Source: Escherichia coli (lineage in GTDB: Bacteria > Pseudomonadota > Gammaproteobacteria > Enterobacterales > Enterobacteriaceae). From it: a stretch of 64,000 nucleotides of DNA. The notes below the pieces were generated by a model. It did no database searches. It was given only the letters and a program-made list of their open reading frames with translations, and was not told the origin of the DNA. A program made the position numbers and the translations under genes. The first letter of the stretch is position 1. Every line of letters starts with the position of its first letter. The stretch lies in assembly GCF_003018115.1 (NCBI RefSeq), contig NZ_CP027457.1; one strand, written 5' to 3'. Below, one piece after another: positions 793 to 27,005 of this stretch.

Positions 793-1839
793 TTAATGCT
801 CTGTCGCCAATCTGTCGCCATTGTAGGTCAACGAAGGTTGAGCCTTCCCTTTGTTTGTTATAATTTCATCAAAGATAGCTGGATTATTATCTTTCAGTAA
901 TCTTGCTAGTATAATGATTTGCCCAGACGAGCCATCATCCTTGAATGAAAGGAAATTATCGGTAATATCAAGAATATCAATGGTAAATTTGAAGTAAGTT
1001 TCAATTGTATCGCCAAGCTCAATGCTGGACATGAAGTTAGTAACCATTTCATATCCATCAAAGTATAAAGTTGCATGTTCATTTAACTCCATTGGAGTTA
1101 GGCAAAGCATTCGATTAAGTTCGGATAAGTGTTTTTCTATTGAATGAAGAGATTGCATTTGACGGATTAAAACTTCGTCAAACTGAGAGCCATGATTAGA
1201 TGAATGTATCTTCTCTAGGTTTTTTAGTATATCAACCCAGTGATTATTCACTTCACGTATGTATTCTTTATCTGTATTTTTAGGCCGTCCCTTCTCTGGT
1301 GAGCTATTTATGAAAATATATCTATATAGATGTATTGGGTAGTTAATTTTATAACTTATCTCTTTAGTACCATAATGACGTTCGCGTTTAATGGTTTTGT
1401 TAGGTAAATTGGTGAAATAATCAGTAACGAACTTTAGATGGCTATAGTAGCTATCAGATAGATTCTTTTGCTTGGTTTCCTCAATTTGTCGGTTTGTTTG
1501 AACTGTGCGGTGTATGTTTGCTACGACAGCAACAAATGGTATGGACAAAGAAAGTAAGGCGATAGGAAGCTTGCTAATTGCAATGAAATTATTAAAGCCC
1601 TCACTATCAAATTGAGGGGAATGTCCAAGCCAGGAAAATATACCAAAGTATATCGCTGAAAATACAGGAATCCTAAGTGATTGTTTAAATAAGTATTGAC
1701 TTGTTAATGGCCTTTCATCCATGTTAAAGCCTTTTTTTGATACGCATAGATATAATTCAAGGCATATATATAAAAAATATATTATGATAAGTAAGTACGA
1801 TATCCATGGGTATTGTTGGATATAGTTATTAACAAACAC
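793..1839 (-). CDS. hypothetical membrane protein (about 3 N-terminal TM helices plus ~230-aa soluble domain); AT-rich cargo between int and attL
   Basis: 348-codon ORF with GTG start at 1837-1839 preceded by GGAG; hydrophobic segments WISYLLIIIYFLYICLELYL, IPVFSAIYFGIFSWLG, LPIALLSLSIPFVAVVANI; AT-rich relative to phage backbone; no recognisable catalytic motif. Confidence 0.55.
   Translation of the reverse strand: MFVNNYIQQYPWISYLLIIIYFLYICLELYLCVSKKGFNMDERPLTSQYLFKQSLRIPVFSAIYFGIFSWLGHSPQFDSEGFNNFIAISKLPIALLSLSIPFVAVVANIHRTVQTNRQIEETKQKNLSDSYYSHLKFVTDYFTNLPNKTIKRERHYGTKEISYKINYPIHLYRYIFINSSPEKGRPKNTDKEYIREVNNHWVDILKNLEKIHSSNHGSQFDEVLIRQMQSLHSIEKHLSELNRMLCLTPMELNEHATLYFDGYEMVTNFMSSIELGDTIETYFKFTIDILDITDNFLSFKDDGSSGQIIILARLLKDNNPAIFDEIITNKGKAQPSLTYNGDRLATEH
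801..821. repeat. tandem direct repeats CTGTCGCCA(A/T), candidate integrase arm-type (P') sites
   Basis: CTGTCGCCAAT CTGTCGCCAT about 95-115 bp from the core; same 10-mer occurs as an inverted pair at 34808..34846 near attR. Confidence 0.4.
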
Positions 1840-2868
1840 TTTCTAATTTTCTCCATCCAAGGTTAGCAAGAGGATTTTTGGTTACAGCATCTTCCAGATG
1901 GTCGGGAGCGAAGTGGGCGTAAATCATTGTCATTTTTATATCGACATGGCCCAGAATATCGCGCAGCACCAGTATGTTTCCGCCATTCATCATAAAGTGA
2001 CTTGCAAATGTATGTCGTAATACGTGTGTGCATTGCCCTTCTGGTAGCTCGATGCCAGCTCGTTTTACCGCACGTTCAAAAGCTTTCCTACAAGGTGTAA
2101 ATAATTTTCCCCTATTCTTAGGCAGTTCTTCATATAAATCCTTTGAAATAGGCACTGTTCGGTTTTTCTTTCCTTTAGTCTTGGTATAAGTGATACGGTA
2201 TTTTGACACCTGATGACTCTGCAGGTTTTCGGCTTCGCTCCAGCGTGCGCCGGTGGCCAAGCATATTTTTGCAATCATCAGCAGACTGGGGCTTTGAGAA
2301 TCAGCACAGGCATCCAGCAGACGTTTAATTTCTTCCGGGGTCAGGAACGCCAATTCACCCTCAGCAATTTTAAATGTTGGCAGCCCAGCAAGCGGGTTGG
2401 GGGCTGCCAGTGGCCCAGCTTTTTCAGTGTACCAAAAACAGATGATAGGTTGCGCTGTTCAAGATTTACCGTGCGGGGCTTAACGGGCGACATAAGCGTG
2501 CCATCTTCATTTCGTACTTCACCTTTTAACCGTGCTTCGCGGTATTTCGTAAACTCACCAGCTGTCAGTTCTGAGGCGATGGGATCGCCTAGACCATTAC
2601 AGATAATTCTAAGTTTCGCCATGAGGCGCTTGGGGTCTGCGAGTGTTTGACCATACAGGGAATACCACAGCTCAATTAATTCTGATAGATGTCGCCGATC
2701 TTCCTTTTCCCCTAGCCATGGTTTTTTGTTCACTTCTTCCATTGTGAAGCTTTCAAACGCAATGGCTTCGCCTTTGGTAGCAAATTGCTTACGCACGCGC
2801 TTACCATTGCGTCCATTGGGATAGCACTCACACAACCATTTTCCGTTCGGCTGTTTTCTGATGGTCAT
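1829..2868 (-). pseudogene. int: P2-family tyrosine integrase, interrupted by an apparent 1-nt frameshift in a G5 run (2399..2403)
   Basis: Two overlapping ORFs (2341..2868 N-terminal part, 1829..2353 catalytic part with ...HVLRHTFASHF...MIYAHF motifs); adding one G/C to the homopolymer gives a continuous ...HWQPPNPLAGLPTFKIAEGELAFLTPEEI... reading. Confidence 0.7.
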
Positions 2869-5219: not shown

Positions 5220-5446
5220 TGGCTGATGCAATGGATCTCGTACAGCAGCGCGTTGAAGAAGAACGCCAGCGCCATATCCGTGCTGCCCGTGCCAGAACGC
5301 CGGGCGTGTCACGCGTGCTTTGCATTGAATGTGAAGCGCCAATTCCGCCAGCAAGACGCCGCGCCATTCCGGGAGTGCAGCTTTGCATTACCTGCCAGGA
5401 AATAGCAGAGCTGAAAGGCAAACATTACAACGGAGGTGCTGTATGA
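5219..5446 (+). CDS. TraR/DksA-family C4 zinc-finger protein
   Basis: CxxC...CxxC pattern (CIECEAPIPPARRRAIPGVQLCITCQ); 75 aa; translationally coupled to neighbours. Confidence 0.7.
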   Translation: MADAMDLVQQRVEEERQRHIRAARARTPGVSRVLCIECEAPIPPARRRAIPGVQLCITCQEIAELKGKHYNGGAV

Positions 5447-6300
5447 GCACCATCCTGAAATGGGCGGGTAATAAAACCGCCGTTATGTCCGAACTGAAAA
5501 AATACCTTCCTGCTGGCCCGCGACTGGTTGAACCTTTCGCGGGTTCCTGTGCAGTGATGATGGAGACGGATTACCCAAGCTATCTGGTAGCGGATATTAA
5601 TCCTGATTTAATCAACCTCTATAAAAAGGTTGCTGCTGATTGTGAGGTGTTTATATCTCGCGCCAGAATTTTGTTTGAGGAAGCAAACAGTGAGCTGGCT
5701 TATTACAACATAAGGCAGGAGTTTAATTACTCAACTGAAATTACTGATTTCATGAAATCGGTATATTTCCTGTATCTCAATCGTCATGGTTACCGTGGGT
5801 TATGTCGCTATAACAAGAGCGGGCATTTCAACATTCCCTACGGTAATTATAAAAAACCGTATTTCCCTGAAAAAGAAATTCGCGCATTTGCAGAGAAAGC
5901 CCAGCGGGCAACGTTTATCTGCGCCAGCTTTGATGAAACGCTGGCGATGTTGAAGGCGGGGGATGTGGTGTATTGCGATCCGCCGTATGACGGTACGTTT
6001 TCCGGCTATCACACTGATGGCTTCACTGAGGATGACCAGTATCACCTGGCATCCGTTCTTGAACATCGATCATCTGAAGGTCATCCGGTCATTGTTTCTA
6101 ACAGTGACACATCCCTGATTCGTTCGCTGTATCGCAATTTCACTCACCACTACATCAAGGCAAAACGCAGCATCGGCGTGTCGGCTGGCGAGAGTAAATC
6201 TGCAACAGAAATCATTGCTGTTTCCGGGGCGCGCTGCTGGGTGGGATTTGATCCTTCGCGTGGCGTGGATAGTTCTGCTGTGTACGAGGTGCGTGTATGA
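5443..6300 (+). CDS. dam: DNA adenine methyltransferase (Dam-like, probable GATC N6-adenine MTase), orphan
   Basis: Motif [10 protein letters not shown] and motif IV DPPY; strong similarity pattern to E. coli Dam ([24 protein letters not shown]); ATG 5443 with GGAGGTG RBS. Confidence 0.85.
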
Positions 6301-8711
6301 GTCATGACGATATGAGCAACTCTAGCGGCTTTAACGAGGCCGCAGCAGCATTTTCATGGAACGGCCCGAAAAAGGCCATTAACCCTTATCTGGACCCGGC
6401 GGAAGTTGCGCCGGAGTCTGCACTTTCAAACATGATCACTCTGTACGCTGCCGATAACGAGCAGGAACAGCTGCGCCGCGATGCACTGAGTGAGCAGGTC
6501 TGGGAGCGTTATTTCTTTAATGAATCCCGTGATCCTGTCCAGCGCGAAATGGAGCAGGATAAGCTCATTAGCCGCGCAAAGCTTGCGCATGAGCAGCAGC
6601 GTTTTAACCCGGACATGGTCATTCTGGCAGATGTCAGCGCCCAGCCTACCCACATCAGCAAGCCGCTGATGCAACGTATCGAATACTTCAGTAGCCTGGG
6701 CAGGCCAAAGGCTTATTCCTGCTATTTGCGTGAGACGATTAAGCCATGTCTGGAGCGACTGGATTGTGTACGCGACAGTCAGCTATCCGCTTCTTTCCGT
6801 TTTATGGCAAGCCATCAAGGGCTTGAGGGCCTGCTGATCCTGCCTGAAATGAGTCAGGATCAGGTAAAACGCCTGTCCACCCTGGTAGCAGCGCATATGA
6901 GCATGTGTCTTGAGGTCGCTTGTGGTGATTTGTATGCCACCGATGACGTTAAGCCAGAAGAAATCCGCAAGGCATGGGAAAAGGTGGCAGCGGAAACCCT
7001 GCGTCTGGATGTTATCCCGCCTGCGTTTGAGAAACTTCGTCGGAAAAGAAACCGCCGCAAACCAGTGCCCTATGAACTCATACCGGGTTCGATGGCACGT
7101 ATGCTTTGCGCCGACTGGTGGTATCGAAAATTGTGGAAGATGCGTTGCGAATGGCGGGAAGAGCAGTTGCGTGCTGTCTGTCTGGTCAGCAAAAAAGCAT
7201 CTCCCTATGTCAGCTATGAAGCAGTGACGCATAAACGTGAGCAGCGCCGCAAGTCGCTGGAGTTTTTCCGTTCTCATGAACTGGTGAACGAAGACGGAGA
7301 CACGCTGGATATGGAAGATGTGGTAAACGCCAGCAGCAGCAACCCGGCACATCGCCGAAATGAGATGATGGCCTGCGTTAAAGGTCTGGAGCTTATCGCG
7401 GAAATGCGTGGTGACTGCGCCGTTTTCTACACTATCACCTGTCCGTCACGTTTCCATTCCACGCTAAATAACGGCAGGCCCAACCCGACCTGGACAAATG
7501 CGACTGTAAGACAAAGCAGTGATTATCTGGTCGGCATGTTTGCTGCATTTCGTAAGGCGATGCACAAAGCCGGGTTGCGTTGGTATGGCGTGCGGGTGGC
7601 TGAGCCGCACCATGACGGTACTGTGCACTGGCATCTTATGTGCTTCATGCGTAAAAAAGACCGCCGCGCCATCACTGCATTACTGCGTAAGTTTGCCATC
7701 CGTGAAGACCGCGAGGAGCTGGGCAATAACACTGGGCCGCGCTTTAAGTCTGAGCTGATTAATCCGCGCAAAGGAACGCCGACAAGCTACATCGCGAAAT
7801 ATATCAGTAAGAACATTGACGGGCGTGGTCTGGCTGGCGAGATCAGCAAGGAAACGGGTAAATCTCTGCGTGATAACGCTGAATACGTGAATGCCTGGGC
7901 GTCTCTGCATCGTGTTCAGCAATTCCGCTTCTTTGGTATTCCGGGGCGTCAGACTTACCGTGAACTGCGATTGCTGGCTGGTCAGGCGGCAAGGCTACAG
8001 GGTGACAAAAAAGCAGGTGCGCCGGTACTGGATAACCCACGTCTTGATGCCATCCTGGCTGCTGCTGATGCTGGCTGTTTTGCGACCTACATCATGAAGC
8101 AGGGCGGCGTGCTGGTTCCCCGCAAATATCACCTTATCAGAACAGCTTATGAAATTAACGAAGAGCCGACCGCCTATGGCGATCACGGTATTCGTATTTA
8201 TGGCATCTGGTCACCCATTGCAGAGGGCAAGATCTGCACTCATGCAGTGAAGTGGAAAATGGTTAGTAAGGCCGTTGACGTTCAGGAGGCGGCAGCCGAC
8301 CAGGGCGCTTGCGCCCCTTGGACTCGTGGCAATAACTGTCCCCTTGCTGAAAATTTGAACCAACAAGGGAAAGACAAATCAGCTGATGGGGACTCCAGAA
8401 CGGATATTACCCGTATGAATGACAAGGAGTTGCACGATTACCTGCACAGTATGAGCAAAAAAGAGCGCCGGGAACTGGCTGCAAGGTTACGCCAGGTGAA
8501 ACCGAAACGGCGTAAAGACTACAAACAGCGAATTACAGACCATCAGCGACAGCAGCTCGTCTATGAACTGAAGTCCAGGGGATTTGATGGCAGCGAGAAA
8601 GAAGTCGATTTGCTCCTTCGCGGCGGCAGTATTCCGTCAGGAGCAGGCCTGCGTATCTTCTATCGGAACCAGCGTCTGAAGGAAGATGATAAGTGGCGGA
8701 ACCTGTATTAA
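6297..8711 (+). CDS. A: replication initiation endonuclease (P2 gpA-like rolling-circle initiator)
   Basis: 804-aa ORF at the end of the early operon; contains the gpA-family AKYISKN region and HWHLMCFM motif. Confidence 0.8.
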
Positions 8712-9296: not shown

Positions 9297-9488
9297 GAAA
9301 TGTTGCCCCCAGGAGGATTCATTCTGATGGGGGCTAGTTTGGGCAATGAGTGAAATAAGGCGTAAGGTGGGCGGTTATTTTGATAAGTGATCGTCCGCTT
9401 TGTGTCAGAAGCAGAAGCGGGAGTGTCTGAGACTCTCTAAAAGTTGATGATTCACTTACAAAACCATTTTCCTGATGGATGCTTACAC

Positions 9489-9824
9489 TTACGAATGATC
9501 ATTCTGTTTAGTCTTCATGAGAAAATCCCGAATCTTTGCCAAGTTTGAATTTTCGGGGATTGAATCCATGTACGGATCACGCTCAAACACTAATTGCTCA
9601 GATTCAACGAAAGCCTGCCACTCTACTGGGTCTAGCTCAAATCCCATTGCTGTCATATCACTTTCATCTTCCCCCTCGATCCAGTGGACTAAATAAAACA
9701 ATTCATCATCAGGAGAATCATCCTCACCATCAACAATATCAACATCGGTTACAGTGATACGTAGGGTGGGATCGATTTTTGAGACATAAATTCCTAACTG
9801 TGGTATAGGGGGAATATTGTTCAT
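9489..9824 (-). CDS. hypothetical highly acidic small protein (about 26 D/E in 111 aa), candidate DNA mimic, anti-restriction or immunity factor
   Basis: Strong RBS AAGGAG 6 nt before ATG (9822-9824); divergent from the DUF262 gene across the cos region; AT-rich. Confidence 0.6.
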   Translation of the reverse strand: MNNIPPIPQLGIYVSKIDPTLRITVTDVDIVDGEDDSPDDELFYLVHWIEGEDESDMTAMGFELDPVEWQAFVESEQLVFERDPYMDSIPENSNLAKIRDFLMKTKQNDHS

Positions 9825-10165
9825 GGAAACTCCTTTTATTGGTGTTTGCTATTTGAATAAAAATACGCCAAACAGAGTGTTAACTGTGAATATGGAAAGA
9901 ATCGTTGTAAGTACCCCACTTAGGTGTCCCATTCTATTTTAGAGGTTCTCGTGCATATGGATTATGTTATCTGAAAGTTAACTTCCGCTTCCCGTTCACA
10001 GCGAACATTCATCTTTGTAAACCCGTATGATCCGTTTTTCAAGTGGCCATTCAGATACGGATTTTCACTTCCTTGACAGTGCATGACTATGCTGCATGAA
10101 ATCGCATGATCGATTGAGGATCGTCTTTGCTCAGATCCGCCAGAACTGGCGGGCTTTTGCTCATG

Positions 10166-10181
10166 TCATGCATGTGCATGA
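10166..10181. repeat. perfect palindrome TCATGCA-TG-TGCATGA beside cos; related GCATGA direct repeats at 10081, 10094, 10104
   Basis: Read directly; candidate terminase or regulator binding site. Confidence 0.4.
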
Positions 10182-10203
10182 AAACCACTGCATAAAGCGG
10201 GCA

Positions 10204-10222
10204 GGCGTGGCGGGGATACGAG
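10204..10222. other. candidate cos cohesive-end site GGCGTGGCGGGGATACGAG
   Basis: First 13 nt match the P2/186 cohesive-end sequence as recalled (GGCG(A/T)GGCGGGGAAAGCA...); lies between the right-end tum region and Q as in P2/186. Confidence 0.4.
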
Positions 10223-10356
10223 CGCGCTCTGATATGAAAATCTGAACAAAAAATTACAAAATGGTATCTTTTTGTTGCTATCATCATTTTTGATGGTAAC
10301 TTAACCTTTTCAGTTTCTATATTATAAAATTCTATCCAGAAGAAGGAATTTGTTTC

Positions 10357-12138
10357 ATGGCTGAACTATTACCGCAAACAACTTCTATACAAACTATTTA
10401 TTCATGGTTTACTGAAGGTAAGATATTTGTTAATAGACGTTATCAACGAAAATTAGTTTGGACTGCAATAGAGAAACAAAAATTAATTGAATCCATTCAA
10501 AAAAAATATCCAATTCCTGCAGTTCTTCTCGCGGAAAGGGAAAATGATCCTGGCACATATGAAATAATTGATGGCCTACAAAGATTACATGCAATAATGT
10601 CTTTCATCGAAACAGGATATGAATCACTTGATGGAAAACGTTTTAATCTGGACGCTTTTCCCACAGCGAAAAATCGAGCGGATGAAGGTAAGTTTGTTGC
10701 AGTGAAAGCTGATAATCTTTTAAGTCAGCGTGAGGTTACTCAGTTATTGGATTATTCTCTTGCAATGTCCATTATGCGTAATGCGACTGAGAACGAAATA
10801 AATGATGTTTTTGATAGAATTAATACATACGGGCATAGACTTAGTGATCAAGAAAGGCGCCAGGCTGGTATACAAAATAAATTTTCAAATATGGTTAGGG
10901 ATATTGCCTGTTCTATCAGGGGGGATGTATCTGACGACATATTGCTTTTAGAGCAAATGCCGTCTATTAGCATTGATTTGCCACTAACTAAACATGGTTA
11001 CCAAATTCAGTCGGAAGAAGTATTTTGGGTAAAACATGGGATCTTACGTTCAACAGACCTTCGTGACAGTATGGATGAGCAATGCATTGCAGATATAGCA
11101 GCTTGTATTGTTGGAGGTAAGTTAATAGATCGTTCCAAAGATGCGCTTGATCAGATTTATAATAATGAAGATGAAGAGTATAGTCGTATTAGCTCTGCTA
11201 TTAATGTTTATGGTGAAGGAAAATTTGCAGAAGAGTTTAAATTCTGCATCCAGGAAATAACAAAAGTATGTAATAGTGACGGTGAAATTAAACTCAGGGA
11301 TTTAATCTTTACTAAACGTACTACAAATGCTTTCCCAGCCATATTTGCTGTGTTATTTATTGCTTTTCATGAATTACTCATTAAAGAAAATAAGAAGATT
11401 AATAATTATAAAGGTGTAAAAGACAATCTTAATAATATAGTCACTCGACTAGATACTAAAAGATCTGCTACTGGTGGGGAAGAGAGAAGAAAGAATATTA
11501 ATTCTATCATAGGCTTGATTAAAGATAACTTTATTGATAGCGCCGATAGCAGTCATATCTATAATTCTCACAATACGGTGGATATTGAGGATATTTTACG
11601 AAGATCTGAAATAGAGCTTGCAAATTATGAACTGAAACAGGGTTTGTTGATGTTAGGCGGAGAGCGAACTATTGATGATGGCATTCATGAGAAAATATTC
11701 TCCACAATTTGTGCTATTGCTAACATCGGTAAAGGTAACAAGAACGGTGTAGTTGGTAAGTTATTGCTTGGTGTAACAGATAAACCAAGTGATACAAGTA
11801 GAGTAAAAGAGCTTGATGATATAGATGCACATGTAGTTGGTGAGAGAAGTGTTGTTGGTGTTAAAAGAGAAGCTATTAAACTCGGCATATCAATGGAAGA
11901 ATATTATAGACGTTTTTGCGATGAGTTGAAAAAATCTGCTTTGAGTGAGCCTCTTAAATCACAAGTGGTGAGTTTGATTGACTATAATGACTTTTATGGT
12001 TATGGAGTTATAGTTATTACAATTCCACTTCTAGCATCTTATTCTAGTTATGATGGGGATATTTATTATCGTGCTGGCGATAATACCGTAAAAGCAACAG
12101 TTATCGAAGCAGCAGATATTGCAACACGTTTTAAATGA
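10357..12138 (+). CDS. DUF262 (ParB/GmrS-like NTPase/nuclease-fold) N-domain fused to Schlafen/AlbA_2-like C-domain; candidate anti-phage defence protein
   Basis: 593 aa; N-terminal RRYQRKLVW and IIDGLQRLHA motifs (DUF262 signature); C-terminal ELANYELKQ...ICAIANIGKGNKNGVVGKLLLGVTD...IYYRAGDNT resembles AlbA_2/Schlafen core; no H-N-H/DUF1524 motif; AT-rich; between cos and portal gene. Confidence 0.7.
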   Translation: MAELLPQTTSIQTIYSWFTEGKIFVNRRYQRKLVWTAIEKQKLIESIQKKYPIPAVLLAERENDPGTYEIIDGLQRLHAIMSFIETGYESLDGKRFNLDAFPTAKNRADEGKFVAVKADNLLSQREVTQLLDYSLAMSIMRNATENEINDVFDRINTYGHRLSDQERRQAGIQNKFSNMVRDIACSIRGDVSDDILLLEQMPSISIDLPLTKHGYQIQSEEVFWVKHGILRSTDLRDSMDEQCIADIAACIVGGKLIDRSKDALDQIYNNEDEEYSRISSAINVYGEGKFAEEFKFCIQEITKVCNSDGEIKLRDLIFTKRTTNAFPAIFAVLFIAFHELLIKENKKINNYKGVKDNLNNIVTRLDTKRSATGGEERRKNINSIIGLIKDNFIDSADSSHIYNSHNTVDIEDILRRSEIELANYELKQGLLMLGGERTIDDGIHEKIFSTICAIANIGKGNKNGVVGKLLLGVTDKPSDTSRVKELDDIDAHVVGERSVVGVKREAIKLGISMEEYYRRFCDELKKSALSEPLKSQVVSLIDYNDFYGYGVIVITIPLLASYSSYDGDIYYRAGDNTVKATVIEAADIATRFK

Positions 12139-12178: not shown

Positions 12179-13207
12179 CTACAAAATATATTTATTAAAT
12201 GTAATTATATTTTCATCCAGCCAACAATTAAGCGCTTGCATCAATTTTTGCAAAGGTAAAAGCTCATTCCGCACAAATACCTTACTAGCTTTCTCTACAT
12301 CCCCAAACCCCCCGACATTGCTAGGCATAATCCCCATCATTTGCGGCGGTACGCGGTGCGCCGCCATCATGTCGTCCCGGCTCACGTTCTTGATATTCAG
12401 AAACTCATCCTTCGCCGCGACTTCTGACAGAGGAATGATCTGAAGCCCATCCTTTTTGCCGTTAGGCGAGTACATAAACAGGTTGCGGAAGTTACCCGGT
12501 CCTTTGGCGCTTTTCATTGCGTTGCGGAGGTTGTTCACATCCTCCTGGTTTTGCGCGGCATCGGTCATGTACATGATGAAGCCTGCATGACTGCCGTTAA
12601 TGTAATACTTCCGGCGGAACAGCGTGGCGGACTCGTTGAGCAGGGCTGACGGAATGGCAGAAAGATAACCGGGCAGGCCGTAGATCTCCTGGTTGATATC
12701 CGGTTCCATCAGGTGAAAAATGCTGCCTTTCGTGAACTGATACGGTTGCGTTGTCATGCCGTATTGCACAAACCAGTAGGTATCCAGGTCTAATCCACGT
12801 CGGGTGTATTTTGCCAGGGCAGGCTCAAGGGCGATAACTTCACCGAATCGGTTCGTGCGTTTCTCCAGGTAGGCGTTACCAAATACCAGATAGTCCTGCA
12901 CAAAACGCGAAAAAGCCTGCTGGCTGAGCAGCGGATGAGGGATATAGGTACTGGTCAGAATGTTGCACTTTACTGCAATCGGGGAACTGTGATGCACGGC
13001 GGCGCGGAAGGTGCGCGCCAGTCCGTCAAAGCTGACGGGCGGCTCATACCAGCGGTCCATCTGTACGCATTCCACATAGTCCAGCAGTTCACGGCGGTCC
13101 AGAACAGGAACGGGATCGCCGAAGCTGAATGCTTCGGCTGTAGTTTGACTTTTAAGCTGGATCTGTTTCGTCGCCGCAGCTCGGTTCTTCTTACTCTTTC
13201 CCATCAA
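12179..13207 (-). CDS. Q: portal protein (P2 gpQ-like)
   Basis: 342 aa, P2 Q size and position, translationally coupled to P. Confidence 0.85.
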   Translation of the reverse strand: MMGKSKKNRAAATKQIQLKSQTTAEAFSFGDPVPVLDRRELLDYVECVQMDRWYEPPVSFDGLARTFRAAVHHSSPIAVKCNILTSTYIPHPLLSQQAFSRFVQDYLVFGNAYLEKRTNRFGEVIALEPALAKYTRRGLDLDTYWFVQYGMTTQPYQFTKGSIFHLMEPDINQEIYGLPGYLSAIPSALLNESATLFRRKYYINGSHAGFIMYMTDAAQNQEDVNNLRNAMKSAKGPGNFRNLFMYSPNGKKDGLQIIPLSEVAAKDEFLNIKNVSRDDMMAAHRVPPQMMGIMPSNVGGFGDVEKASKVFVRNELLPLQKLMQALNCWLDENIITFNKYIL

Positions 13208-14970
13208 AAAATCTCCACAATATTGCTGGTATTGGCGGATTCGCCCTGCAGCGGTTCGTTAAACAGTGCGTGCATCGTTGCCCATGCCAGATCGGCGTGG
13301 CTGGCTTCTTCGCTGCGGCTGGCTTCATAGGTCGGGCGGTTGCCACTGGCTGTGGTGGCGCGACGGATTGCCATAAATGACTGCGCAATGTCGGTATGTC
13401 CGGCGTCAAACTCCAGACGGCGGTGGCTGATAATGTCGTAGGCCTTGAGTACCAGGGCGTTTTTAACGTTGGGGTTGTAGACAAACTCCCGGACGGCAGG
13501 AAAGAACGCTTTCACGTTCTCGTAAACCCCGTGACCAACGCCGGTTGAGTCGATGCCGATGTAGGTCACGTTGTACTGCTCGGTCAGTTTTTTGATTGCG
13601 TCAGCCTGGGCGCGGAAGTCCATCCCGCGCCACTGGTGACGCTCAAGAATGCGAAACTTGCCGCCCGGCACGGTTGGCGGTGCCACCACCACGCACCCGG
13701 CGCTGTCACCGTTCTGCGTGCCTTTCGCCGGGTCGTATCCGATCCAGACTTCGCGCCAGCCAAACGGGCGCAGGGCCAGTGCATGAAAGTCGGTCCAGAC
13801 TTCCCAACTGTCCACCATGCACGCCTGCAGCTCGCTGAGCGGAAACACGGACGCGAGATCGTCCACAAACTCGCACATCAGTAGGTTCTGGTATTCGTCC
13901 GGGCTGTACTCCATGCGCAACTGATCGAGGTCGAACAGGTTACAGCCGCCGCGCACCGCATCTTCCACAGTGACTATCTGGCGGTACTGTCCGTCAGGGC
14001 AGAGCAGGCCGCGCGCAAGATTGCTGTGGGTCAGGTCAATATCCACCTTGTCCGCTTTGGCGCGGCCCCGGTTAAACAGCGCACCGGACCAGAACGGATA
14101 GGCACTGTGGGTCAGGCTGGACGGCGTGGAAAAGTAGGTTTGTCGCCATTTCTTGTGAATGGCCATCCCGGAGGCAACTTTGCGCAGTTCCTGGAATTTC
14201 GGTATCCAGAAATATTCATCAAGGTACAGGTTGCCGTGGTAGCTCTGCGCCGTACGGGCGTTGGTGCCGAGAAAGTACAATGCTGCGCCATTAGGTAGCA
14301 CCATAGGATCGCCTTTCAGCTCCACCTCAACTTCTTTGGCAAAGTCGATGATGTACTGCTTAAAGACGTGCGCCTGTGCCTTACTGGCAGAAAGGAAAAT
14401 CTGGTTACGTCCGGTAAGCAGGGCGTCAATCAGGGCTTCACGGGCAAAGTAAAAGGTCGCGCCGATCTGGCGTGACTTCAGCAGGTTGCGGATGCGGTTG
14501 GTTTTTCCTGCTTCCCACCAGTGGCGCTGGTAGTTGAACATGGAGGAATAAAAGATTTCTTCCAGCTTCTCAATCTGTTCATCGGTGAAAACGTTCTTTT
14601 CCGGCTGACGGCGCGGGCCTTTGTTGCGGTTGGCGACGTTAGGGTTTAAGTCGGCTTCGTTGCCGCCATTGTTAAACTTGCCGATCCGCGCATGGCGCTC
14701 CGACTGGCGCGCCAGCAGGTCAATCTCTTTGAAATCTTTCCCTTCTTTGTGCTCCTTCATAATGAGCTGGCAGTAGCGTGCGGCGGTGGTGAGCTGCATC
14801 TGATCCAGCGGCCCATAGTCACCCCACTTGTCGCGTTTTTTCCAGCTGTGAACGGTTGCAACTTTCTCGCCCAGCATTTCAGCAATGCGGGCTACGCGGT
14901 ATCCCTGAAAGTACAGCAGCATGGCCTGCCGACGGGGATCGAGATCTGCGGGTGTCAGTGTGGTGTTCAT
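13204..14970 (-). CDS. P: terminase large (ATPase) subunit (P2 gpP-like)
   Basis: 588 aa; size and synteny with P2 gpP. Confidence 0.85.
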   Translation of the reverse strand: MNTTLTPADLDPRRQAMLLYFQGYRVARIAEMLGEKVATVHSWKKRDKWGDYGPLDQMQLTTAARYCQLIMKEHKEGKDFKEIDLLARQSERHARIGKFNNGGNEADLNPNVANRNKGPRRQPEKNVFTDEQIEKLEEIFYSSMFNYQRHWWEAGKTNRIRNLLKSRQIGATFYFAREALIDALLTGRNQIFLSASKAQAHVFKQYIIDFAKEVEVELKGDPMVLPNGAALYFLGTNARTAQSYHGNLYLDEYFWIPKFQELRKVASGMAIHKKWRQTYFSTPSSLTHSAYPFWSGALFNRGRAKADKVDIDLTHSNLARGLLCPDGQYRQIVTVEDAVRGGCNLFDLDQLRMEYSPDEYQNLLMCEFVDDLASVFPLSELQACMVDSWEVWTDFHALALRPFGWREVWIGYDPAKGTQNGDSAGCVVVAPPTVPGGKFRILERHQWRGMDFRAQADAIKKLTEQYNVTYIGIDSTGVGHGVYENVKAFFPAVREFVYNPNVKNALVLKAYDIISHRRLEFDAGHTDIAQSFMAIRRATTASGNRPTYEASRSEEASHADLAWATMHALFNEPLQGESANTSNIVEIF

Positions 14971-17024: not shown

Positions 17025-17675
17025 ATGAGCCTGAGTCCCGCACGGCAGCATCGCCTGCGCGTTCAGGCTGAACAGGCCGCCCGCGAGGGCGGCAGCGTTC
17101 GCCACGCGTCGGGCTATGACCTGATGCTGCTGCAACTGGCGGAAGACCGCCGCCGTCTCAAGGGCGTTCAGTCCACGGTGAAAAAAGCGGAAATCAAGGT
17201 GGAGCTGCTGCCGAAATATGCCGCCTGGGCGGAGGGCGTCCTGGCTGCCGGAGGCGCTCAACAGGATGACGTGCTGATGTACGTGATGCTGTGGCGCATT
17301 GATGCCGGAGATTATGCCGGGGCGCTGGAGATCGGGCGTCATGCCCTGCGTCATGGCTGGGTGATGCCGCTGGGTAACCGCAACGTGCAGACCGTGCTGG
17401 CAGAGGAAATGGCAGACGCGGCGCAGAGCGCAATGCTTGCCGCCACCGGCTTTGATGCCGATCTGTTGCTGCAGACGCTGGAGCTGACAGACGGTCTGGA
17501 TATGCCGGACCAGTCACGGGCGCGTCTGCATAAAGCGATTGGCGCTGTCCTGAGTGAAAGCAACCCGGCTTCCGCCCTTAATCATCTCAACCATGCGTTA
17601 CAGCTCGATCCCCGCTGTGGCGTGAAAAAAGACAAACAGCAGCTGGAGCGCAGACTGCGCAATGACAGCCGCTGA
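17025..17675 (+). CDS. M: terminase endonuclease (small) subunit (P2 gpM-like)
   Basis: 216 aa, synteny. Confidence 0.8.
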   Translation: MSLSPARQHRLRVQAEQAAREGGSVRHASGYDLMLLQLAEDRRRLKGVQSTVKKAEIKVELLPKYAAWAEGVLAAGGAQQDDVLMYVMLWRIDAGDYAGALEIGRHALRHGWVMPLGNRNVQTVLAEEMADAAQSAMLAATGFDADLLLQTLELTDGLDMPDQSRARLHKAIGAVLSESNPASALNHLNHALQLDPRCGVKKDKQQLERRLRNDSR

Positions 17676-20942: not shown

Positions 20943-20988
20943 AGTTGCAGCACTGCCGCCTTTCTTCCCCTGATGGCAACCTTTCCCT

Positions 20989-21567
20989 ATGAACGCACAA
21001 TTAACCGAAATCATGCGCCTTATCACCAACCTGATCCGCACAGGGGTAGTCATCGAAGTGGACAGGGAAAACTGGCTTTGCCGGGTGAAAACGGGCGACC
21101 TTGAAACCAACTGGATTAACTGGCTGACGCTGCGCGCGGGTAATGCCCGGACATGGTGGCGACCATCGGAAGGTGAGCAGGTGGTGCTACTGAGTCTGGG
21201 CGGCAATCTGGAAACAGCCTTTGCGCTGCCCGCCATCTATTCGAATCAGTTCGCGCCACCGTCGACGTCGGCAGACGCCTGCGTGACAGAACATCCTGAC
21301 GGTGGCTGGTTTGAATACGAACCTGCCACCGGGCGTTGGTATGTAAGGGGCATCAAATCAATGGTCATTGAGGCCGCTGACAACATCACCATGAAAACCA
21401 GTGAGTTTGTACTGGAGGCTGACCACACGCGCATTAACAGCGAAGTGGTGATCAATGGTGGCGTTACCCAGGGCGGCGGAGTGATGAGTTCTAACGGGAT
21501 TGTGGTTGATGCACATCAGCATACTGGCGTCCTGAAAGGCGGCGACACAACCGGAGGCCCGGTATGA
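20989..21567 (+). CDS. V: baseplate spike/assembly protein (P2 gpV-like)
   Basis: 192 aa; synteny V-W-J-I. Confidence 0.8.
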   Translation: MNAQLTEIMRLITNLIRTGVVIEVDRENWLCRVKTGDLETNWINWLTLRAGNARTWWRPSEGEQVVLLSLGGNLETAFALPAIYSNQFAPPSTSADACVTEHPDGGWFEYEPATGRWYVRGIKSMVIEAADNITMKTSEFVLEADHTRINSEVVINGGVTQGGGVMSSNGIVVDAHQHTGVLKGGDTTGGPV

Positions 21568-21923
21568 CGCTTTATAGCGGGATGAACAATACCAGCGGTA
21601 AAGCCATTACTGATATTGACCATCTGCGCCAGTCGGTGCGGGACATTTTGCTGACGCCGCAGGGTAGCCGCATTGCCCGTCGGGAATATGGTTCCCTGCT
21701 GTCGGCACTGATAGACCAGCCACAAAATCCGGCATTACGCCTGCAGGTCATGTCGGCAGTGTATGTGGCGCTGAGTCGCTGGGAGCCACGGCTGACGCTG
21801 GATTCCATCACCATCAACAGCAACTTTGACGGTTCTATGGTGGTGGAGCTGACCGGGCGGCGGAATAACGGTGTGCCTGTGTCCCTTTCCGTATCAACAG
21901 GAGCAGAGAATGGCAGTGATTGA
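21564..21923 (+). CDS. W: baseplate protein (P2 gpW-like, gp25-like)
   Basis: 119 aa; synteny. Confidence 0.8.
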   Translation: MTLYSGMNNTSGKAITDIDHLRQSVRDILLTPQGSRIARREYGSLLSALIDQPQNPALRLQVMSAVYVALSRWEPRLTLDSITINSNFDGSMVVELTGRRNNGVPVSLSVSTGAENGSD

Positions 21924-25299: not shown

Positions 25300-25873
25300 C
25301 ATCCGGCGCTGTGCTGGTATCTGTTGCCGTCACCGCGTCAATGTAATCCAGCACAGCGTTAAGGCGGGTTGTTTCTGCCTGCGTCAGCTTCCGTCCGGCC
25401 TGTAATTTCAGTTGAATCAGACTGATGGAGGCCATTGCAGTATCAATCAGCGACTGGCGCTGTGCTTCTGCTGCATCTACTGCTGCGCCGTGCTGTGCCT
25501 TGGTATCTGTCACCCATTTCTCACCATTCCATTCATCGTATGGCGTTAACGGGGCGATAGTGGTTGTATTTTCAGGATAATCACCCGGAGCTGTGATTTC
25601 TTTCGATTCTCCTGTTTCGATGCTATAGACGATTTCACCGCGATGATCTGGCACATATTCCCATGAATTTAAATTCACAGAACGACAGATTGCATAACCA
25701 ACCTTATGTATGCCTGGTGCATCAAGACAGGAACATGCCGGAATACCGACACCAACAGCAAGATATTCAGTTGACGTGGAAATATATTCCCGTGTTTCAC
25801 CATCGTAGTTATAAACGGTAACATCCCCTGCCTTTGTTGCAATAAGGTCACTATTTAATATTGCTTTATGCAT
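25271..25873 (-). CDS. alternative tail fibre assembly protein (Tfa')
   Basis: 200 aa on opposite strand within invertible segment; C-terminal ...DTSTAPDVIWPELPEA parallels Tfa ...DTSGAPDIEWPTPPA. Confidence 0.75.
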   Translation of the reverse strand: MHKAILNSDLIATKAGDVTVYNYDGETREYISTSTEYLAVGVGIPACSCLDAPGIHKVGYAICRSVNLNSWEYVPDHRGEIVYSIETGESKEITAPGDYPENTTTIAPLTPYDEWNGEKWVTDTKAQHGAAVDAAEAQRQSLIDTAMASISLIQLKLQAGRKLTQAETTRLNAVLDYIDAVTATDTSTAPDVIWPELPEA

Positions 25874-26370
25874 CAGGCTGCCCTCACGATATAATTAAAT
25901 GCAATATTACGCGGACGCGTTTCTGAGGCTGCGGCACCTAAACCAGCCACTGATTGTTTATATGTTTTAAAGGTTCCATAATCCGGTGCTGGTAATCCGG
26001 CATCGTTTGTGTTTCCTCTTTTGATAATGTCAGTGCCACTATTTACCCAGCTTTCATCAAAATAGAAATTAATAGTTGCATCAGTCACAATCGTGGATCT
26101 TGACGGTAATCCATGAGCATGATCCTCCGTTGCATATCCCTGAATACTTAAAATAGAGCGACCTGTATCAATCCCCGCCCGTCATCCCAGCCACGAATAA
26201 ACTCACCACGTAAATCAGGCAATTTATTTGTCGGGTAAACTTTTGCCAGTTCCGGGTATTCTTCAGCAGAAAAAGCTGCACCATTGCATTTCAGCCAGCC
26301 TGTAGGCGGAGTGGCTGAAGGCCACGGAACAGGGACACCAACAGGTAATGCAGAGCCTTCTCCCAAACCA
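25873..26370 (-). other. alternative tail-fibre variable C-terminal segment (H'), promoterless, with apparent frameshift at C4 run 26173..26176
   Basis: Minus-strand reading from the crossover site: ...GLGEGSALPVGVPVPWPSATPPTGWLKCNGAAFSAEEYPELAKVYPTNKLPDLRGEFIRGWDDGRG, then frame shifts to ...DTGRSILSIQGYATEDHAHGLPSRSTIVTDATINFYFDE... Confidence 0.6.
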
Positions 26371-26383
26371 ACGTTTATGAAAA
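26358..26383. repeat. invertase crossover site (right), TTCTCCCAAACC-AA-CGTTTATGAAAA
   Basis: Inverted relative to left site; core dinucleotide AA vs TT. Confidence 0.6.
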
Positions 26384-26438
26384 TGCAGAGATAATGGCTA
26401 ACTGGCATCATCCCCGGTTTTTATTCAGGGGATTGATC

Positions 26439-27005
26439 ATGCTTATTGGCTATGTACGCGTGTCAACAAATGACCAGAACACCGATTTGCAACGTAATGC
26501 ACTGAACTGCGCGGGATGTGAGCGGATTTTTGAGGACAAAATCAGTGGCACTAAGTCCGACAGACCGGGGCTTAAAAAACTGCTCAGGACACTATCGGCA
26601 GGTGACACACTGGTTGTCTGGAAGCTGGACAGGTTGGGGCGCAGTATGCAGCATCTTGTTACGCTGATAGAAGAGTTGCGCCAGCGTGGCGTGAATTTCC
26701 GAAGCCTGACTGACAGTATTGATACCAGTACCCCAATGGGCCGTTTCTTTTTTCATGTCATGGGTGCCCTGGCTGAAATGGAACGCGAACTGATAGTTGA
26801 ACGTACCAGGGCAGGGCTGGCTGCAGCTCGTGCCAAAGGCAGAGTAGGTGGGCGTCGTCCTAAGTTGACCACCGAACAGTGGGCACAGATTGGACGTTTA
26901 CTCGAGGCCGGAGAATCAAGACAGCGTATTGCACTGATTTTTGATGTGGGCGTTTCTACCATTTATAGAAAATTTCCGGTGAATGAGAGCAATGAATCGC
27001 CCTGA
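26439..27005 (+). CDS. serine DNA invertase (Gin/Hin/Cin/Pin family)
   Basis: MLIGYVRVSTNDQNTDLQRNAL (catalytic Ser in VRVST) and C-terminal HTH; 188 aa. Confidence 0.9.
   Translation: MLIGYVRVSTNDQNTDLQRNALNCAGCERIFEDKISGTKSDRPGLKKLLRTLSAGDTLVVWKLDRLGRSMQHLVTLIEELRQRGVNFRSLTDSIDTSTPMGRFFFHVMGALAEMERELIVERTRAGLAAARAKGRVGGRRPKLTTEQWAQIGRLLEAGESRQRIALIFDVGVSTIYRKFPVNESNESP

Follow-up and report, generated by a model that had tools for sequence, protein, structure and literature searches.

A probable P2-type cos site with an upstream array of TGCAT motifs in the Rybb*W prophage of Escherichia coli W

Positions 10079-10229 of the window (the whole stretch of 64,000 nucleotides of Escherichia coli DNA that was analysed) are very probably the cos site of Rybb*W, a Fels-2/186-like prophage of the P2 family in E. 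coli W, and would be recognised and nicked by the terminase made up of gpP and gpM. It is a cos site of a known kind: the same 19-mer is already annotated in the Salmonella phage SEN8, and the cos-adjacent cargo of this lineage was described decades ago. During lytic growth, gpP and gpM would recognise the module on replicated phage DNA, and nicking of both strands 19 bp apart by the terminase would lead to linear genomes with the 5' cohesive ends GGCGTGGCGGGGATACGAG. The long arm on the gpA side, with its five TGCAT(G) motifs, a dyad and an A-tract at fixed distances from the nick, would then be the region on which the terminase assembles.

The prophage and its cohesive-end sequence

The prophage is located at rybB/rcdA of E. 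coli W, and ten further assemblies of the species match the region at 100% identity, as does E. coli W itself. Under the name Rybb*W, the element has been included at rybB among the P2-type prophages in the E. coli W genome paper (Archer et al. 2011, PMC3032704), which also places the retron Ec86 in the equivalent prophage of E. coli B, Rybb*B. According to the passage of PMC5694545 that cites Dodd & Egan 1996, the segment from cos to a terminator in a 186-related prophage is replaced by retrons.

In the RefSeq annotation of E. coli W, the gene order starts with integrase, KAP NTPase, CI, CII, Fil and Dam, followed by the replication endonuclease gpA (6297-8711) and DinI. Next come a 111-aa ORF, the cos block, a gene with a GmrSD domain, the portal and the terminase ATPase, and the order ends with scaffold, capsid and small terminase and finally the lysis and tail genes. 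The proposed site is therefore found between the gpA/accessory end and the leftward portal-terminase operon (Q, P), where the portal gene gpQ (12179..13207, minus strand) marks the head-gene side of cos. Pfam identifies both gpP and gpM in the same element, so that the cognate terminase is present. There are also likely cargo genes at some distance from cos. A KAP-family P-loop NTPase (approximately 917-2368, minus strand) is encoded between the integrase and CI genes, a classic variable slot of the P2 family, and another such slot, flanked by the genes for virion morphogenesis and baseplate V, holds an oppositely oriented gene for a 307-aa hypothetical protein (approximately 20976-21899, minus strand).

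The first-pass annotation of this DNA had recognised a P2/186-type cohesive-end sequence at 10204..10222, and this proved to be right. The 19-nt sequence GGCGTGGCGGGGATACGAG on the plus strand can be aligned gap-free with the cohesive ends annotated in 186 (15/19 identical positions) and P2 (14/19), and it is identical in 19 of 19 positions to the first 19 positions of SEN8, which are annotated as 'putative cos site'. The cos site of SEN8 has also been reported with the same 19-mer (PMC5427200), and the last base of the SEN8 record is the equivalent of window position 10203. In the P2 record, GGCGAGGCGGGGAAAGCAC is annotated as cosL and cosR, and in the 186 record GGCGTGGCGGGGAAAGCAT is annotated as cohesive end. 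Like the ends of the P2 family, the 19-nt end at 10204-10222 is GC-rich and begins with GGCG(A/T)GGCGGGGA, and GGCGWGGCGGGGA has one exact match within the 64-kb window. As no gaps are needed to align it with the ends annotated in P2 and 186, and with the site of SEN8 itself being a 'putative' one, we infer a 19-nt 5' overhang at 10204-10222. The nicks would accordingly be placed between 10203 and 10204 in the top strand and between 10222 and 10223 in the bottom strand. The cos reading also fits the position, with gpA on one side and the portal and terminase genes on the other, and the conservation of a block of 150 bp in about 120 related loci.

The ends of phage records were considered as proof of the termini as well and rejected, as among the records compared SEN8 alone starts at the 19-mer. 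The linear record of Midge (PV287706) cuts the 19-mer after 9 nt, and that of Cartapus (OV696611) terminates within the palindrome ATGCA-NN-TGCAT. Since both of these ends lie off the cos nicks, record ends are unreliable as termini.

An alignment with the cos regions of P2, 186 and their relatives, which had been proposed in the first-pass annotation as a check, is gap-free through the core and reveals a layout that is common to 186 and P4. In the 55 bp from -29 to +26, counted from the proposed top-strand nick, the window is identical to P2 in 41/55, to 186 in 43/55, to P4 in 42/55 and to SEN8 in 52/55 positions. A conserved cos core of 55 bp is ascribed to Ziermann & Calendar 1990 in those passages of PMC3931495 and PMC5694545 that cite this work. 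By our own count, the published core is taken to be the stretch -29..+26, which is nearly identical in P2 and P4 and starts at the TGCAT motif termed R5 below.

Extent and architecture of the conserved block

The block was delimited with a sample of 121 distinct loci covering -180..+70, namely 115 loci from IMG/VR, the rebuilt junctions of P2, 186, Wphi, P4 and SEN8, and the window. IMG/VR was scanned with the pattern GGGCRGGCGWGGCGGGGA, which returned at least 120 stretches. Positions -5..+13 are fixed by this retrieval pattern, so invariance within them is circular and only the positions outside that stretch give independent evidence of conservation. Among the IMG/VR matches listed, the cos variant ATACGAG, which is also that of the window, is the commonest (48/123). 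In 47 distinct loci of this type, the information content per position stays close to the maximum between -125 and +25 and drops to approximately zero directly outside. BLAST matches to heterologous phages of Klebsiella, Salmonella, Yersinia and Escherichia begin at 10078-10081 and finish at 10227-10240. Information content and BLAST limits together give 10079..10229 for the whole conserved module, which corresponds to -125..+25 from the proposed nick. Beyond the block, the sequences are unrelated among the loci on both sides and variable cargo begins. The block itself consists of three direct repeats, a GC-rich dyad, an inverted pair, an A-tract, the 19-mer and CGCGCGC. Judged from this conservation, the recognition signal is best read as asymmetric, extending over about 125 bp towards gpA vs about 7 bp (CGCGCGC) towards the portal. 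Two ORFs that overlap the block (10087-10287, minus strand, and 10096-10245, plus strand) were rejected as conserved genes, as both run into non-conserved sequence, and Rfam matched no family in 9300-10500.

The direct repeats and the inverted pair had already been described in the first-pass annotation as three GCATGA repeats and a perfect palindrome, and all of them are present as claimed. The GCATGA copies are found at 10081-10086, 10094-10099 and 10104-10109 with start-to-start distances of 13 and 10, and the palindrome TCATGCA-TG-TGCATGA at 10166-10181 is detected by the repeat search as a perfect 7-nt inverted repeat (10166-10172/10175-10181). Taken together, the array and the palindrome contain a single motif five times, first in three direct copies and then as an inverted pair, and in the Fels-2-type subgroup this motif reads TGCATGA at all five sites. 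The most distal copy, R1 (TGCATGA, 10080..10086, plus strand), has TGCAT at exactly -124 in 82/121 loci. For R2 (TGCATGA, 10093..10099, plus strand), TGCAT is found at -111 in 79/121 loci and the G and T of GCAT are invariant in the alignment. R3 (cGCATGA, 10103..10109, plus strand) has TGCAT at -101 in 57/121 loci and GCAT in more of them, GCAT being at least 90% conserved in the alignment. The left arm of the palindrome, R4 (TCATGCA at 10166..10172, that is TGCATGA on the minus strand), is represented by ATGCA at -36 in 89/121 loci, and the right arm, R5 (TGCATGA, 10175..10181, plus strand), by TGCAT at -29 in 114/121 loci, with an invariant GCA in the alignment. An extra TGCAT is present at -15 in the window and absent in SEN8.

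The first-pass annotation had named a lack of conservation in related phages as the result that would speak against these elements, and the motifs are instead found at fixed offsets across the 121 loci. What is family-wide, however, is the palindrome in the form ATGCA-NN-TGCAT, whereas the perfect 7+7 palindrome and the form GCATGA of the repeats are confined to the Fels-2-type subgroup. The ATGCA-NN-TGCAT palindrome is complementary in 87.6% of cells vs 12-38% in slid controls, and it is conserved as sequence, without covariation. Counting both strands, the 64-kb window contains 43 copies of GCATGA, of which five lie within 101 bp at the block. Such a density (five per 101-bp span) was reached in 0/300 first-order Markov simulations, with a maximum of four that occurred once. 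The clustering of the bare TGCAT is not significant, as 56/300 Markov simulations reach six copies in 115 bp, and the statistical case therefore rests on the clustering of GCATGA and on the positional conservation across genomes. Over the whole window, TGCAT is rarer than expected from dinucleotide-preserving shuffles (131 observed vs 222 ± 15), so its concentration in the cos block stands out beyond the raw counts.

With regard to the function of these elements, two possibilities had been raised, terminase recognition and control of the cargo genes flanking cos. It is correct that these genes are divergent and that both point away from the block. The 111-aa ORF (9489-9824, minus strand) has no match in Pfam or PADLOC, and the gene on the other side (10357-12138, plus strand) encodes a GmrSD-family protein of 593 aa with a GmrSD_N (DUF262) domain and NsnA as best PADLOC match (E = 8e-31). 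It might also be considered that the mapped old-tin mRNA of P2 starts approximately 150 bp upstream of cos, from which we conclude that the P2 promoter must be close to the most distal TGCAT repeat of this phage. Nevertheless, it is very improbable that the repeats and the palindrome are operators or promoter elements of the two divergent cargo genes, since the cargo differs between the loci. An operator should be specific to the adjacent cargo, but the block is constant throughout the 121 loci, in about 120 of which it is kept between unrelated flanks on both sides, and it is also present in P4 satellites, there beside psu. Moreover, the sole sigma-70-like match upstream of the GmrSD gene (10301-10330) is located in the variable AT-rich flank and there is none inside the block, and the minus-strand ORF begins 254 bp away from the block. 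The best reading of the repeats and the palindrome would be terminase recognition, to which their fixed offsets from the nick, their persistence whatever the cargo and their presence in P4 satellites all point. The TGCAT motifs would then be protein-binding sites. Our literature search found no description of TGCAT repeats or of binding of gpM or gpP to cos, and no mention of elements upstream of the published 55-bp core.

A second perfect inverted repeat, which is not part of the first-pass annotation, was found by the repeat search at 10137-10143/10146-10152 (CCGCCAG/CTGGCGG). This GC-rich dyad, CCGCCAG-AA-CTGGCGG (10137-10152), extends with its outer pairs and a T-run (10155-10158) over 10134..10158 on the plus strand, and is matched both as an inverted repeat and as terminator-like. 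In the 121 loci, 78% of cells pair within -70..-49 vs 27-46% in slid controls. Two outer pairs of the dyad swap between GC and CG in 35 and 23 loci, and the inner GCCAG/CTGGC is kept as sequence; as the sequences are related, these swaps may go back to few independent events. Such compensatory swaps preserve the symmetry of the dyad, as would be expected of a hairpin, and as the terminator scan reports 7 pairs and CTTTTG and the ATACGAG group keeps the T-run, the dyad and the T-run could also be mainly a rho-independent terminator that halts rightward transcription coming from the early/accessory end before the nick site, and not a contact of the terminase. We regard this as rather unlikely, though, because loci of the 186 type and the P4 type hold the dyad at the same offset without the T-run, because the inner GCCAG..CTGGC is conserved in sequence instead of covarying, and because the nearest upstream gene in the window is on the opposite strand. 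The folding energy of the hairpin is also unremarkable (z = -0.87). With z = -1.0 for the whole block as single-stranded DNA, neither value is better than that of shuffled sequences, and thermodynamics thus gives no structural argument. A further terminator-like match on the minus strand (10200-10185) was judged to be due to chance, as it has 5 pairs including a G-T pair and no transcript to terminate.

Between R3 and the dyad, the block of the ATACGAG group, and of this group only, contains two GATC sites 11 bp apart (10108-10111 and 10119-10122, together 10108..10122), which are part of ATGATCG-N6-GGATCG and at least 90% conserved. They are absent from the cos arms of P2 and P4. A further GATC is located at 10134-10137, and the prophage has a Dam gene of its own (approximately 5443-6300). 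This combination of a GATC pair with a prophage Dam recalls the Dam control of pac cleavage in P1.

On the proximal side, the A-tract and spacer AAAACC...ATAAAGCGGGCA (10181..10203, plus strand) lead up to the nick. The AAAA and the AAG lie outside the search pattern and are near-invariant, and -5..-1 are fixed by the pattern. The right flank reads CGCGCTC (10223..10229, plus strand) vs a family consensus of C/TGCGCGC, the difference being a T at 10228 (+24), where approximately 118/121 loci have a G. With this T, GAGCGCGCTC (10220-10229) becomes perfectly palindromic over its 10 bp. Either the T weakens cos, or it reflects a cargo junction 2 bp further in than usual.

An IS3-family transposase (approximately 25803-26980, minus strand) is inserted in the tail-fibre region according to the RefSeq annotation of E. 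coli W, and the prophage is probably unable by itself to form infective particles. Because of this insertion and the T at +24, the present copy may be out of active use. That it is a decaying relic, i.e. a defective prophage whose cos is no longer functional, would account for both the IS3 element and the G-to-T exchange at a near-invariant position. Still, we consider it improbable, as all five motifs are intact, and so are the dyad, the 19-mer and the genes for terminase, portal and capsid, and as the block shares 138/151 identical positions with that of an isolated phage, SEN8. Furthermore, a related helper can use the cos site in trans even if the prophage makes no tails.

Terminase lineages, satellites and the candidate reader of the motifs

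The argument for a packaging signal is strengthened by the satellite P4. P4 and P4-like satellites have only cos in common with their helpers. At the right end of P4, upstream of its cos, we found cATGCATcgataaggTGCATGgctttGCATGC, the dyad CCGCGCCATTCCCGGCGCGG and GTGCAacTGCATTAAAACC, and the same elements are carried by ten IMG/VR loci in which a Psu homologue adjoins cos (L014, L042, L047, L050, L055, L061, L065, L102, L107 and L126). Since the block is kept by a parasite that needs only packaging, a packaging signal is the best explanation for it, and its presence in the satellites hints indirectly that it may suffice in cis for packaging or transduction by a helper. None of the ten Psu-linked loci carries the ATACGAG type of cos, the commonest among the phage loci. 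The sampling may be responsible for this, or there may be few P4-type satellites for helpers of the Fels-2 type.

The ATACGAG type of cos is associated with a separate clade of head and terminase genes. The gpP proteins of ATACGAG loci are 93-99% identical to that of the window vs 62-69% in loci with other cos types, and for gpM the corresponding values are 87-100% vs 49-54%. A G at -24 (GCATG) is present in 47/47 ATACGAG loci, and the other types mostly have TGCATT or TGCATC. As far as can be judged from these comparisons, the proximal 55 bp (-29..+26) track the terminase lineage and the distal arm is common to the lineages and to P4-type satellites. Two chimeric IMG/VR loci, L048 and L052, have a gpA (82%) and a distal arm of the Fels-2 type joined to a proximal core and head genes of another kind, which indicates crossovers within the block, between about -45 and -30. 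The chimeras suggest an interchangeable distal arm, with the specificity residing in the proximal part. It has to be considered, however, that linkage and shared descent alone would give most of this pattern of co-segregation with the lineage.

The large terminase gpP (13204..14970, minus strand; Pfam Terminase_5, Terminase_6N and Terminase_6C) has a predicted N-terminal helix-turn-helix (HTH) at residues ~11-50. Pfam gives a weak match to sigma-70 region 4 below the family cutoff for gpP, and the AlphaFold model of residues 1-130 has three helices at 12-46 with a pLDDT of 82-88. This model superposes locally on HTH domains of the LuxR/GerE type (1-2 Å over about 36 residues), with E-values that are not significant. 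The small subunit gpM (17025..17675, plus strand; Pfam Phage_term_smal) is confidently modelled as all-alpha (pLDDT 91) with weak TPR-like matches, and neither an HTH nor an obvious nuclease fold was detected in its model. The fold-search matches of both models have weak E-values and are hints only. A sequence search of the PDB gave no solved homologue of gpP or gpM and no structure of a P2-family terminase. On the basis of these models, the N-terminal HTH of gpP is a candidate for the reader of the TGCAT motifs. A link between a residue of its recognition helix (H vs Q) and the base at -24 was tried and dropped, as L117 pairs Q with TGCATG.

Combining these observations, we tentatively propose, as a possibility to which we would not give even odds, that the approximately 95 bp above the 55-bp core, comprising R1-R3, the GATC pair, the dyad and R4, are an assembly arm which can be interchanged between lineages, and in which the HTH predicted at the N-terminus of gpP, and not the presumably TPR-like gpM, would read TGCAT. 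This arm would have been copied wholesale by P4-type satellites, and crossovers at about -45 to -30 would be one route by which the cos-adjacent defence cargo is reshuffled between lineages. One could also assume that TGCAT is bound by a factor other than the terminase, either a nucleoid or bending protein of the host or one linked to Dam/SeqA via the GATC pair, and that the terminase contacts the 55-bp core only. This would be in line with the conserved core of 55 bp in the papers citing Ziermann & Calendar, as far as the citing passages go, with the swapping of the distal arm between terminase lineages in the chimeric loci, and with the Dam methylase of the prophage and the conservation of GATC sites one helical turn apart in the Fels-2 group. 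Such a reader is nonetheless quite unlikely: R5 is situated within the 55-bp core and shares its motif with the distal repeats, which points to a single reader of all five copies, the cos arms of P2 and P4 contain no GATC, and, as a weak argument, inspection by eye gave no match to the IHF consensus.

Assigning cos to this block fixes the limits of the two cos-adjacent cargo (defence) slots of the prophage at 10079 and 10229. It also provides a map, at base resolution, of the packaging signals conserved in the P2 family and P4, comprising the five TGCAT motifs with their fixed offsets, the covarying dyad and the proximal core that is specific to the lineage. The map supplies mutations and fragments for asking how P2-type terminases recognise DNA, and could help to explain both the hijacking of terminases by satellites and the exchange of cos-adjacent cargo.

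Comparison with other cos sites

The cos sites of P2, 186 and P4 have the same genomic position as the block described here, start with GGCG(A/T)GGCGGGGA and show no indels through the core. They differ from it in the 3' part of the overhang, which is AAAGCA(C/T) followed by T in these three and ATACGAG followed by C in the window, and in R5, which is TGCATT in P2, 186 and P4 and TGCATG in the window. The layout of R1-R3, dyad and R4/R5 is the same in 186 and P4 as in the window. P2 and Wphi, in contrast, keep R1-R3 and R5 and are without the dyad and R4. Both are viable phages, and the dyad and the left palindrome arm are therefore not universally essential.

The closest relatives are SEN8 and the group of Fels-2, RE-2010 and SopE-phi (Felsduovirus), which have the same order of gpA, hypothetical gene, DinI, cargo, cos, cargo and portal. 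SEN8 and the window are identical in 19/19 positions of the 19-mer, 52/55 of the core and 138/151 of the block, with different cargo on both sides and the T at +24 present in the window only. Rybb*B of E. coli B is a prophage of the same type at the same rybB integration site; the copy in the window is without the retron and has the 111-aa ORF and the GmrSD-family gene instead.

The cos site of phage lambda consists of cosQ, cosN and cosB, the latter with R sites for gpNu1 and an IHF site. It is not of the kind found here: the BLAST matches of the block are P2-type phages, there is no sequence relationship between lambda cos and the block, and the overhang of lambda has 12 nt vs 19 nt in the window. 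The small subunit of lambda is a winged-HTH protein, whereas in the present case the small subunit is predicted to be all-alpha and TPR-like, with no HTH detected in its model, and the HTH is predicted on the large subunit. In its role, however, lambda cos with cosB and cosQ may be seen as analogous, as both systems would combine a site for staggered nicks with a one-sided array of short motifs in mixed orientation and a central element.
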